From Candidatus Peregrinibacteria bacterium (lineage in GTDB: Bacteria > Patescibacteriota > Gracilibacteria > Peribacterales > Peribacteraceae), in contig JABGQH010000009.1 of NCBI GenBank assembly GCA_018648865.1, positions 12,917 to 76,916 of the forward strand: a stretch of DNA of 64,000 nt, given 5' to 3'. Below, one piece after another: positions 11,214 through 14,744 of this stretch. Numbering within the stretch: position 1 is the stretch's first letter; every line of letters starts with the position of its first letter. Made by a program: the position numbers and the translations under genes. The notes under the pieces were generated by a model. It did no database searches. It was not told the DNA's origin and worked only from the letters and a program-made list of their open reading frames with translations.

Positions 11214-12059
11214 ATGAACGTTAGGTGTCTGCTACTTGTTGCGGCATTACTTCCTGTGCATGCATTAGCATCTGGATTTGACTATCTGTTAGGAGATGCA
11301 GAAAAGTTTGCAGATGATTTGAAATGGCAGATTAATGCAGAAGTATTGATGATAGAAGATGCTGAATATCAAAATTCTATGGAATTATTTATTCCAGTTG
11401 ATGATGACAAATTAATTAATGAAGGTGTAAAGGACGTAGTAATTGATTCATCAAAATTTGTTACCGTTCGTATAAATGGAATTCCTGTAACATTCACAGA
11501 TGTTCCGAGTGGTACTTGGTTCTCGTCTTTTGTAAGGCAAGCTGCCGAAACAGGAATAGTATCTGGATACAAGGATTTAAGTGGGCGAATACTTGGTGTA
11601 TTTGGTCCTACCGACAATGTAACGATAGAACAACTCGCAAAGATAGCGTTAGAAGCATCTGGTCATTACATTCCAGATTGCGCGGGTACACCTATAAACG
11701 AATCTGGAGCAGGTTCTTGGTCAGAGGATTATATTTCTTGTACAGAGAATCTTGAATGGTCAGTATTTAGTGATGGATCAGTAGATGTTAAAAGGCCAGC
11801 AACAAGATCAGAGGTAATAATTACTTTAATCCAATCATTTGATGTTTCGTTTAGCAGGGGAACAGGTGAAGTGTTTGATGATGTTACGTCTACTACTCAA
11901 TTTAGTGGTGCAATAGAGAGAGCAGAAGAAGATGGCATTGTTTCTGGGTACGCAGATGAAAACGGTGATCCAACAGGATTGTTTGGACCATATGAAACTG
12001 TAAATAGGGCAGAAATTGCAAAAATGATCACCTTAGCTCAAAGCGTATATAGCAATTAG
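11214..12059 (+). CDS. S-layer homology (SLH) domain protein (probable start ATG 11214; ORF track starts 11154)
   Basis: FTDVPSGTWF...GIVSGY...FGPTDNVT and FDDV...GIVSGY...FGPYETVNRAE SLH repeats; signal peptide from MNVRCLLL. Confidence 0.85.
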   Translation: MNVRCLLLVAALLPVHALASGFDYLLGDAEKFADDLKWQINAEVLMIEDAEYQNSMELFIPVDDDKLINEGVKDVVIDSSKFVTVRINGIPVTFTDVPSGTWFSSFVRQAAETGIVSGYKDLSGRILGVFGPTDNVTIEQLAKIALEASGHYIPDCAGTPINESGAGSWSEDYISCTENLEWSVFSDGSVDVKRPATRSEVIITLIQSFDVSFSRGTGEVFDDVTSTTQFSGAIERAEEDGIVSGYADENGDPTGLFGPYETVNRAEIAKMITLAQSVYSN

Positions 12060-12061
12060 TA

Positions 12062-13075
12062 CTATATTTGATTCCTGTGATGCTGAATCATGTGGTGCTC
12101 TTGTACTTTTTCTGATGAGTGGACACCAACTTTATGTGTTAGCAGTACTCCTAGTACAATTGTTGATCCTCCAATAATTTGATACATGTGTATTTGCTCA
12201 CCTAGATATATGGCAGCAAAAATTATTCCACCAACTATAGAAAGTGTCCCCATCATAGATACTGTTCTTACTTTTAGATGATCTATTGCTTGATGGAAGC
12301 CATATGTGCCTAAGAATTTAGCGATAAATCCGTAGCCTATTAAAGCTATTAGAATTTCTTTGTTAATGTTTGAAAACTCATTTCCCATATTAAATGTAAT
12401 AAATGGTGAAACTAAGAAAAAAGTAAGCGCAGCCATAGATGCCCTACCTGCAATAATTAATTCTGGTGGGACTTCGTGTAGAGATTTTTTTATGATAATA
12501 CTTCCTAGTGCATATACTAATGCAGACGAAACAATTAACATATCTCCTGTTGCAATGTTCACAGTTTCTGTGAATCCTCTAAGTGCCACATAAGTTATTC
12601 CAAATAAAATTACGGATAATGAAAATACATGTTGCTTTGTAAACTTTTCATGAATAACTATTACACCAAGTAAAATCATAAATAGCATTTCTGTTCTACT
12701 AAATAATTCTGCATTAACAGCAGAAGTACTGCTTAGCCCAATAAACCATAGTAGTGGTGCAATTACACCATTCAACAAGGAGCTAAATATAAACAGCTTC
12801 TTCTTATTCTTTTTTACCTTTCTCCATTTTCTTATTATTGGAATCGCACCAAACCAAATTGCCACAAATATTCCTCCTAAAAATTCGCTTAGGAATAATA
12901 ATGAAACAGGAGAAAATGCAGTTGTAAGCTTTTTACCGAAGGAAGGATATGTAGAACCAGCTACAATTAGTAATACAACACCTATCCAACCTAATAATTT
13001 AGATTTAGAGTTAGCATCGCTCTTGAATAAAGCAATAGGTTGAAAGTCGATGTCAAAAACTTGTGTTAATTTGAT
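12062..13075 (-). CDS. EamA/DMT transporter; frame extends 70 codons upstream of GTG 12865 to a candidate ATC start at 13075
   Basis: EamA repeats (GLSSTSAVNAELF, IYLGEQI); upstream frame open and encodes further TM helices; His-rich C-terminus. Confidence 0.8.
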   Translation of the reverse strand: MKLTQVFDIDFQPIALFKSDANSKSKLLGWIGVVLLIVAGSTYPSFGKKLTTAFSPVSLLFLSEFLGGIFVAIWFGAIPIIRKWRKVKKNKKKLFIFSSLLNGVIAPLLWFIGLSSTSAVNAELFSRTEMLFMILLGVIVIHEKFTKQHVFSLSVILFGITYVALRGFTETVNIATGDMLIVSSALVYALGSIIIKKSLHEVPPELIIAGRASMAALTFFLVSPFITFNMGNEFSNINKEILIALIGYGFIAKFLGTYGFHQAIDHLKVRTVSMMGTLSIVGGIIFAAIYLGEQIHMYQIIGGSTIVLGVLLTHKVGVHSSEKVQEHHMIQHHRNQI

Positions 13076-13298
13076 AGTGTTATTATAACATAAATAGAGA
13101 GTATTGGGAATACTCTAATACCTACAAATAAAGGTTATATTAACAACTACGATGCATAAGAAAAGGTCCTTCGATTCAGCGCTCTGCGCTTCACTCAGTT
13201 TTCAACAAGTTCAAACTAAAGGATCATTCGAATCTTTATGAAAAGAATGGTTTACCATGAGAGAGGAGTTGTTGCACTAGCAACAATGACTAATCGAA

Positions 13299-13386
<88 letters not shown>

Positions 13387-13481
13387 ATATACGAATATTT
13401 CAGAGATCGATTAATAGTTAATCTAACTCAATTGTAGAAAGAACATTTTGATTTGTACAGAAACAATAGATGTTCTTCTAT

Positions 13482-14744
13482 TTAGATAGGTAGTGATTCA
13501 ACATCTAAAGATGGCAATTCTCTTTCTGCTTTAACGCCTATATCCATAGGTAGGCTAGTTATTGGGTCAACTTCCTGAGAAGTAATTATTAGTCTTCGTA
13601 ATGTTGTTCCAATTGGAGTACATGTCATTAAAGTCCCAATTCGTTTATTAATTGGTTGGTCTAGCACATTTACATTTGTTGGCTTAACCTCTTTTTTCTC
13701 TTGAACAATGTACCTGTGTTTATCTCCACCATAATAAATCCAATATTCATCACCTGGTTCTAGTTGATGCAAGCCAGCAAAAACTGATTTATATGCCCCT
13801 GGTGCCCATGGGTAATACGAACTGTGCCCTGTTATGAAAAAGTTACCAGCTTGCCCAGGTCTAGCTGTTCCGGGGTAATGAACAACTCCGAGCTGCAATG
13901 CATCTTGAATGTCTTCCTCTAGCTCATCCCATTCTTCATTTAGCAGCGATTGATAAGAAGGCGTAATTAGAGGGACATTTAAATGCAACTTTGGAATAAT
14001 AATTCTATTTGTTGGTGGCCCAACTTGTGGCAAGAAGCTGAGCATATTCCCATTGCTGTCACCAGATACAGCAAGAGAAGGACTCCTGAGTAGTTTCTGC
14101 TTCATTGTGTCGTCAACACCAGTCAGCAAAGATGATTCCTGAATCTTTTGAATTGGATTTAGATTAGATTTGGTTATCTTCCAGAAACTTTGGAAATTTA
14201 AAGTTATAAACAAAAGCAGGAATAATCCTGCAAAAGTTCCACCGAATCTAACAGTATCAATTAGGAATAATGTGAGTCTGTTATATTGTTTCATTTCATT
14301 TTTTTTCTTTTGCACTACCCAAACTGGTTGAGTTAAAAAGTTCCAAATTGGTTTTTTTATAGACTTTGAATTCTTGGCAACATTTATACATTCGCTCTTG
14401 CATGTTTTTAAACAAGAGCTGTATTGATTTGTGCCTTCTGAAAATACTGAATTTATAGTGTTAAATATTTTCTTACGTGCTGATATAAAAATATGGTGAT
14501 CCTTGGATACAGAAAATGATTTCTCCAAAGAAGGTGAAATCTCATCTTCAAATGGAACATTATGTCCATGTTGTTTTCTGGAGACTCTAATACTCTGATC
14601 TTCTAAATTTGAAATTGGAGTTGAGTCTTCTTCTGTAACTGTCCATGAATTATTCTGATTAATATCATTATCAGCATCTGGAAGACGTATATTTCCATCT
14701 TCATCATATTCAGCCTCGTGATCGTGGTTATGCGCAGAAATCAA
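13482..14744 (-). CDS. Sortase (class D/E-like) with long N-terminal extension and TM anchor
   Basis: GNFFITGHSS and TLMTCTPIGTTLRR catalytic His/Cys/Arg; start uncertain. Confidence 0.85.
   Translation of the reverse strand: MISAHNHDHEAEYDEDGNIRLPDADNDINQNNSWTVTEEDSTPISNLEDQSIRVSRKQHGHNVPFEDEISPSLEKSFSVSKDHHIFISARKKIFNTINSVFSEGTNQYSSCLKTCKSECINVAKNSKSIKKPIWNFLTQPVWVVQKKKNEMKQYNRLTLFLIDTVRFGGTFAGLFLLLFITLNFQSFWKITKSNLNPIQKIQESSLLTGVDDTMKQKLLRSPSLAVSGDSNGNMLSFLPQVGPPTNRIIIPKLHLNVPLITPSYQSLLNEEWDELEEDIQDALQLGVVHYPGTARPGQAGNFFITGHSSYYPWAPGAYKSVFAGLHQLEPGDEYWIYYGGDKHRYIVQEKKEVKPTNVNVLDQPINKRIGTLMTCTPIGTTLRRLIITSQEVDPITSLPMDIGVKAERELPSLDVESLPI

Follow-up and report, generated by a model that had tools for sequence, protein, structure and literature searches.

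A candidate leaderless AUC start for an EamA transporter gene in a Peregrinibacterium

The EamA locus and its open frame

The window analysed here, a stretch of 64,000 nucleotides (nt) from a Candidatus Peregrinibacteria bacterium (GCA_018648865.1, contig JABGQH010000009.1, positions 12,917 to 76,916), carries on its minus strand a gene for a transporter of the EamA/DMT family that has no canonical start codon ahead of its first helix. The reading frame, which ends at the stop 12064-12062, runs back without a stop through 350 codons as far as an in-frame TAG (13115..13117, minus strand) and, as the original prediction had stated, no ATG, GTG or TTG occurs between this TAG and the GTG at 12865-12863, which is codon 84 and the first canonical start of the frame. 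In frame with this GTG, and 210 nt or 70 codons upstream of it, stands an ATC (13073..13075, minus strand), and the consensus extended -10 that had been noticed exactly 6 nt before it is indeed there: TGTTATAAT (13082..13090, minus strand) is followed by AACACT (13081-13076) and then by the ATC (13075-13073). We propose that the coding sequence comprises the 337 codons from this ATC to the stop (12062..13075, minus strand) and that the ATC, which would also be the +1 of the transcript, truly serves, as a 5'-terminal AUC, to start translation of a leaderless mRNA, a reading to which we give a probability of about 0.7.

The putative -35 hexamer TTCCCA (13105..13110, minus strand) lies 17 nt 5' of the -10 and matches TTGACA at four of six positions. 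A consensus scan scored TTCCCA-17-TATAAT with its TG extension at 10 of 12 matches, the better of the two promoter-like sites in 12800-13500, a number of sites that is not above that of shuffled sequences (mean 2.7). The predicted 5' end of the mRNA is unstructured, its first 56 nt having a minimum free energy of -1.6 kcal/mol (z 0.86) and 165 of 200 shuffles folding at least as well, while Rfam at E<=1 over 12700-13500 returned a tRNA and two sub-threshold chance matches and no riboswitch or leader RNA.

The frame upstream of the GTG encodes the peptide LLGWIGVVLLIVAGSTYPSFGKKLTTAFSPVSLLFLSEFLGG, that is, the first helices, which the original prediction had described as missing from the shorter product. 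The Pfam profile EamA (PF00892) matches two stretches of the open frame (E 3.9e-33, 115 bits, cut-off 28.2), of which the best covers open-frame residues 42-176 and profile positions 3-133 of 135. Since the domain begins at residue 42, 42 codons 5' of the GTG at residue 84, a protein started at the GTG would be devoid of helix 1 and of part of helix 2; a complete first repeat (helices 1-2) needs a start upstream of 12990, which the ATC at 13075 provides and the GTG does not. The GTG (12863..12865, minus strand) chosen by the public gene calls lies within the first repeat, inside helix 2, and their 267-residue product P0003 is therefore truncated, being short of 70 residues, helix 1 included. 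We take the gene to be that of a functional 10-helix EamA/DMT transporter, with two EamA repeats and about 10 helices. Between the ATC and the Trp of helix 1 it encodes an N-terminal cytoplasmic leader peptide of 29 codons, KLTQVFDIDFQPIALFKSDANSKSKLLG (12986..13072, minus strand), and the N-terminal peptide of the 337-residue protein would be, if our reading is true, (f)MKLTQVFDIDFQPIALFK.

Conservation of the start in the genus and beyond

Among the genomes searched in a genus-wide survey a single other species of the genus was found (locus L004). Its transporter is 56% identical to that of the window and its gene has the layout TGGTATAAT-ACAAGT-ATT, which repeats the extended -10 and the 6-nt spacer of the window and continues with an in-frame ATT (TTA TGG TAT AAT ACA AGT ATT); no canonical codon comes before an ATG within helix 1. 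From the ATC or ATT to the Gly-Trp of helix 1 the two genes run in parallel for 30 ungapped codons, over which their identity at codon positions 1, 2 and 3 is 0.53, 0.67 and 0.37; the BLOSUM62 score is 49 in frame, the other frames, interrupted by stops, scoring 5 and -1, and 6 of the 10 identical leader residues are spelled with different codons. Such a coding pattern of substitution means that the leader is translated and under selection. Over the next 60 codons the corresponding identities are 0.70, 0.85 and 0.47. A third protein, P0002, 89% identical and compared as protein only, reads MCYNNTIKLTQAF and keeps the Ile (NTIKLTQAF), the M in its model corresponding to the codon that precedes the TGT of the -10.

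The base call was compared with contigs of other data sets: contigs from run X4 (12049-13219) and from run X5, a separate study (12983-13500 and 12683-12976), have 0 differences and 0 indels relative to the window, whose DNA is present in marine metagenomes. Two RNA libraries yielded contigs of 151 nt at 12865-13015, 12739-12889, 12732-12882 and 12545-12695, partly 5' of the GTG; they span 12545-13015 and not 13016-13075, carry no 5'-end information and may stem from DNA carry-over.

The transporter's named homologues come from Candidatus Peregrinibacteria, and the public models of the relatives P0004-P0006 and P0012 start within helix 1 or shortly before it. An orthologue at E<=1e-40 was found in 165 of 200 family genomes. 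Outside the genus the starts were compared locus by locus. A canonical ATG, TTG or GTG stands between a -10-like box and helix 1 in 27 of 27 loci of one set and 22 of 23 of a second, which makes 49 informative loci with L165 (G047) excluded because it is cut by a contig end; three orthologue loci share one N-terminal peptide and perhaps belong to one organism. These starts lie 39-45 codons before a conserved FGK motif and 0-21 nt after the box, and in most loci a TGnTATAAT-like box stands 131-149 nt before the FGK. The orthologue N-termini (MK..L.L.LP, as in MKELALTLP and MKTLTLTLP) can be aligned with the window's IKLTQVFDIDFQP, the ATC standing opposite the M, and this alignment together with the distance of the box identifies the ATC as homologous to the orthologues' start codon, at a leaderless position. 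The orthologue comparison suggested along with the original prediction has thus given ATT in L004, Ile in P0002 and ATG, TTG or GTG in the 49 loci outside the genus, and a start near 12865, which had been named as an outcome that would refute the original prediction, occurs in 0 of these 49. In the 17 orthologue loci with a spacer of 6-8 nt the start is ATG in 8, TTG in 8 and GTG in 1; many other orthologues start 9-18 nt after the -10. It is worth mentioning as an observation of its own that TTG is level with ATG (8 versus 8) at EamA starts of leaderless geometry, among the loci L006, L010, L015, L016, L023, L162, L163, L171 and L176; leaderless TTG is all but missing from Deinococcus deserti (0 of 916). 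A scan of metagenome contigs added four loci of about 50% identity, with ATG starts, and a pattern search of genome contigs with the transporter protein gave 514 matches and 0 relatives.

Gene starts in the genome and other genes without a canonical codon

How does the genome of the window (1.13 Mb, 23 contigs) start its genes? Its 16S rRNA ends in GGAACACTTCCTTA (CACTTCCTTA; about 175437-175500 of G000:C9), so that the core of the anti-Shine-Dalgarno (anti-SD) sequence is CUUCC and not CCUCC. A Peregrinibacterium figures among the organisms without a conserved CCUCC in a published survey (PMC10783764). For open reading frames (ORFs) of at least 150 codons, taken at their first canonical start, SD-like words are not enriched (37 of 805 starts versus 48 of 805 in a control window), and GGAAG, the match to the altered anti-SD, is not enriched either (7 versus 5). 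By comparison, when the 805 ORFs are sorted by the distance from the end of a -10-like box to the first canonical start, 51 have it at 6 nt, 28 at 7 nt and 31 at 8 nt, other offsets having about 11. The exact arrangement TATAAT-N6-ATG, with 100 or more open codons behind it, is present 23 times in the genome, more often than with any other spacer of 0-25; the leaderless geometry that had been seen elsewhere is thereby confirmed. As far as can be judged from its sequence, leaderless or near-leaderless initiation is a main mode in this genome.

The only initiator tRNA (L116:1501-1577, G000:C13) has C1xA72, the anticodon CAT and an anticodon stem of the form au/GC/GC (A29:U41), not GC/GC/GC. The same stem was found in 15 of 15 family genomes examined (among L117-L137), in addition to the genome of the window, and in two other families of the class, and the canonical GGG/CCC stem in four genomes from other families of the class, two of which have one G-U pair in it. 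Published work describes the au/GC/GC variant in alpha-proteobacteria and in some mycoplasmas, and in E. coli it is defective in initiation (PMC5389676). We considered this tRNA as the specific cause of starts at AUA, AUC or AUU (AUH) and rejected it in this role: being family-wide, it does not single out the genomes that use AUH. The IF3 gene carries both IF3_N and IF3_C. Its first ATG (infC, L042:7401-7964, G000:C9) falls at position 1 of IF3_N and has an open basic stretch, RKRHGKKQSQSLSVKKPR, upstream, and infC may really start at a non-canonical codon, as it does elsewhere among bacteria. In the complement of 43 tRNAs there is a tRNA-Ile(UAU) (G000:C1:23244-23320), and only two CAU tRNAs were found, the initiator and the elongator Met; the reading of AUA presumably does without a lysidine tRNA-Ile2.

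The transporter gene is not the only one of its kind. Of the genome's open frames, 132 run for at least 18 codons before a first canonical start comes up; we translated these and scanned them with Pfam, and 7 proved to have a domain beginning ahead of that start: two frames at contig edges, prfB, EamA, a gene of HTH-HATPase-STAS (DUF4325) type, RsmI and HPPK (folK). The case of prfB (L042:9691-10719, G000:C9) is explained by CTT TGA G, the classic site of a programmed +1 frameshift, which also means that UGA is a stop in this genome, in contrast to the neighbouring Gracilibacteria/Absconditabacteria (code 25). The four genes that have no canonical start, EamA, HTH-ATPase, RsmI and folK, all have an AUH codon, and what would place the ribosome is in each case either an mRNA 5' end or a terminating ribosome.

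The HTH-ATPase gene, which lies outside the window, reads TTTACA-N17-TATAAT-TAGAAT-ATA GAT, with its ATA at L084:1504-1506 (G000:C9), and the orthologues found (4 of 4) have -10-N6-ATG (three) or GTG (one), with GAT or CAT as the next codon. Upstream of the gene there are three copies of GTTTACAAT(T), with similar GTTTACAAT/GTTTACGAT repeats upstream of the orthologues, and these look like autoregulatory operators. The rsmI gene (L090:1513-1515, G000:C20) reads TGAGAGAAT-AATTAC-ATC CTA TCC, in the place of ATG CTx TCx in most of 21 relatives, and an ATC is found at rsmI in two other genera, 6 nt past an extended -10, as TGCTATAAT-ACAGTT-ATC (L097, where a GTG lies 5 codons upstream, within the promoter) and as TGCTATTCT-CCAGCC-ATC (L098). 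That two other genes of the genome share the -10-N6 geometry lends further support to a true ATC start in EamA. In folK (L141:1534-1536, G000:C9) it is an ATA that overlaps the TAG of the upstream gene (CCATAGC), forming an ATAG in the manner of the usual ATGA stop-start overlap; this arrangement is found in 4 of 10 informative genomes, the other three (L142, L147, L150) belonging to three further genera, and the remaining six have ATG or GTG.

The proposed AUC start, its rivals and known systems

Transcription from the extended -10 would start at A13075 and leave a leaderless transcript with AUC as its first triplet, and in an organism without SD sequences it would be the 5' end of the mRNA that positions the ribosome. 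A ribosome carrying formylmethionyl-tRNA (fMet-tRNA(CAU)) would then bind the unstructured 5' end and accept AUC with a wobble mismatch, the initiator pairing with the first two bases, and the protein would begin fMet-Lys-Leu-Thr. We infer accordingly for this gene a transcription start site at 13075, AUC initiation, Met as the first residue and a low level of expression. The weak codon probably holds the transporter at this low level, and the frequent TTG in the orthologues points the same way. Among the three explanations offered in the original prediction, namely a true ATC start, a recent inactivation and a sequencing error, the first has come out as the best supported.

Several observations nevertheless weigh against this proposal. 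At leaderless geometry (n=110) the genome uses ATG 90 times, GTG 12 times and TTG 8 times, and since AUG dominates there, AUH is an exception, a weak alternative that is tolerated but has not become the default. The rsmI of this genome has a weak -10 (GAGAAT after TG), and the alternative TATTAT leaves a short leader. The first 8 residues after the ATC (-45 to -38) are just 3 of 8 identical between the window and L004, which would still admit a start a few codons further in. Leadered transcripts could come by read-through from a tRNA-Leu gene, which both species of the genus have upstream of the transporter and on its strand. Finally, in the bacteria that have been tested an AUC, AUU or AUA at the 5' end serves very poorly as a leaderless start: in a Caulobacter reporter study, 5'-terminal AUC, AUU and AUA stay drastically below AUG and the natural leaderless starts are AUG, GUG and UUG only (PMC8459731), and the 916 mRNAs of Deinococcus deserti with a 5' untranslated region of 0 nt have ATG 740, GTG 176 and ATC 0, with ATC on a leadered gene only (PMC4007540).

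Initiation could occur at another near-cognate codon within the leader (ATC 13051, ATT 13036 or ATA 12985), on an mRNA with a short SD-less leader. An Ile codon at -37 is common to the window (ATC), L004 (ATA) and P0002 (I), the weak conservation of the eight residues before it fits such a start, and orthologue starts 9-18 nt past the -10 tell us that short leaders do work in the EamA family. An internal AUH would, on the other hand, be without any positional cue in an organism devoid of SD sequences; the ungapped frame-0 similarity begins at the ATC or ATT itself, with the window's IK aligned to the orthologues' MK, and in HTH-ATPase and RsmI the ATA and ATC sit exactly at the orthologues' ATG or GTG, 6 nt past the -10. 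We regard this alternative as unlikely, although it is the likeliest of the rivals considered.

Less likely again is an ordinary rare AUC start at ATC 13075 on a leadered transcript, coming from the promoter of the tRNA-Leu (about 13431-13459) or from another one. The tRNA-Leu(UAA) (13299..13386, minus strand) lies directly upstream, 220 nt away, is syntenic in the same-genus genome and is a possible source of read-through; it is preceded by the promoter-like TGTACA-17-TACAAT (13459-13431), and no G+C-rich terminator was found between it and the EamA gene. What speaks against a leader is that most of about 50 orthologue loci keep the extended -10 at a constant spacing from the start, irrespective of their upstream neighbours, and that the genome makes no use of SD sequences to guide an internal start.

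That the gene is a pseudogene, inactivated by loss of its start codon as the original prediction had considered, would agree with the absence of a canonical start and with the truncated product P0003 of the public calls. We hold it to be improbable: the frame of 337 codons is unbroken in three genomes, at identities that go down to 56%, an Ile codon being shared at that distance, and the leader evolves as coding sequence over its 30 codons, position 2 being more conserved than position 1 and position 1 than position 3, as in the next 60. An unconstrained frame of 337 codons would stay open with a probability of about 1e-11 (at about 7% stop triplets, estimated from 35% G+C), and contigs from RNA libraries lie on the gene.

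A true start at GTG 12865, yielding a shortened transporter of 8-9 helices, is more doubtful still. It has a perfect AGGAGG 7 nt upstream and was picked by the public gene callers, but this genome has an altered anti-SD core and shows no enrichment of SD-like words in front of its starts, and the AGGAGG here merely codes for Leu-Gly-Gly; the GTG falls within helix 2 of the Pfam domain, no informative orthologue starts there, and the 70 codons upstream of it are conserved as protein. An ATG misread as ATC, or a 1-nt indel hiding a start at the out-of-frame ATG 13015..13017 (minus strand; MLTLNLNY*), which a 1-nt insertion in an A-rich run would bring into frame, can be dismissed, since the X4 and X5 contigs from two studies hold no other letter or indel over 12983-13219, the relatives keep Ile (ATT in L004), L004 has no ATG equivalent to 13017 and conservation of the protein extends upstream of 13017.

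It remains to compare the proposed start with what is known elsewhere. Leaderless mRNAs are known in many bacteria, and rare AUU, AUC and AUA starts are known on SD-led mRNAs, as in infC and pcnB of E. coli; EbpA of Enterococcus reportedly starts at ATT. With the leaderless mRNAs of D. deserti, Mycobacterium and Caulobacter crescentus the EamA gene and its parallels share a -10 about 6-7 nt before the start, the lack of an SD, an unstructured 5' end and a layout that a large share of the genes in the genome have; they differ in that the former have AUG or GUG at the 5' end, rarely UUG, whereas EamA has AUC and its parallels here AUU or AUA. In M. tuberculosis, leaderless mRNAs are defined by a 5' RUG (PMC9094748). 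With SD-led AUH starts of the infC/pcnB type the gene has in common that AUH takes the place of AUG, is missed by gene callers, is kept among close relatives and probably gives lower expression; as in these cases it has an AUH at the start position of its relatives and no canonical start upstream of the conserved N-terminus. There, however, an SD places the codon on a leadered mRNA and IF3 proofreads it on the 30S subunit, while here there is no SD system, the 5' end would place the codon, and the 9 nt upstream, where an SD at 5-10 nt would be sought, belong to the -10 box and the spacer.

Another likeness is with mammalian mitochondria, where leaderless mRNAs and AUH initiation likewise go together. 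In two published reports, mammalian mitochondria are described as combining leaderless mRNAs with AUA, AUU and AUC, the tRNA-Met with f5C34 and IF-3mt supporting AUA (PMC11775629), and near-cognate starts outnumber AUG on the leaderless mRNAs of mouse mitochondria (PMC8459731). The two systems are nonetheless different, mitochondria having a single tRNA-Met that carries f5C34/m5C34 and a specially extended IF3, and the present genome a separate initiator tRNA(CAU) and a dominance of AUG (90 of 110). Full-text literature searches, outside whose coverage most subscription journals lie, gave no bacterial report of a leaderless AUC, AUU or AUA start, and searches on leaderless initiation among candidate phyla radiation (CPR) bacteria or among Peregrinibacteria gave no bacterial report of leaderless AUH. 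What seems to be new here is the combination of a non-canonical start with a leaderless mRNA, recurring in the genome and in the family, each part being known separately.

It is tempting to go one step further, though we would sooner bet against this extension than on it, and to suppose that in the SD-less family of Peregrinibacteria the identity of the start codon is relaxed wherever the 5' end or a terminating ribosome positions the ribosome, AUH then being a regular and heritable class of starts for initiation of the 70S type, as in mammalian mitochondria. The scope of this idea would comprise the ATC and ATT of EamA, the ATA of HTH-ATPase, the ATC of RsmI in three genera and the ATA of folK in 4 of 10 genomes, and the equality of TTG and ATG in EamA orthologues of leaderless geometry fits it. 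The use of AUH could belong to one syndrome with the changed anti-SD and with the au/GC/GC stem that the initiator tRNA has throughout the family.

If the AUC start is true, the rule drawn from E. coli, Caulobacter, Deinococcus and mycobacteria that a leaderless mRNA needs a 5' AUG (or GUG) would be specific to lineages, and a conserved and selected 5'-AUC, AUU or AUA start in a lineage of free-living type would be the bacterial counterpart of mitochondrial leaderless AUH initiation. In practice, gene callers cut short or mis-start such genes (EamA, RsmI, folK, HTH-ATPase), so that annotations of CPR genomes will systematically lose N-termini. The case suggests, in addition, that very weak start codons may serve as a setting of expression where there is no SD strength to tune.

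Two minor features of the locus deserve mention. The palindrome that had been reported over the -35 region (13098..13116; read on the minus strand from 13116 to 13098) is real, AGAGTATT-CCC-AATACTCT with 8-bp arms and a 3-nt loop, and its full form is unique in the genome; perfect 8-3-8 hairpins are nevertheless common, with 633 in the 1.13 Mb or about 36 per 64 kb, and it is not conserved in the same-genus L004, where identity over the 60 nt before the -10 is 38%. It may be an operator or a hairpin, and we have left it aside as evidence on the start. The transporter protein is otherwise ordinary except for a conserved His-rich C-terminal tail (HEHHM.QHHR): in this tail, HSSEKVQEHHMIQHHRNQI (12062-12120, minus strand), H341, H345 and R347 are invariant in an alignment of 10 sequences, which hints at a function related to metal or pH.

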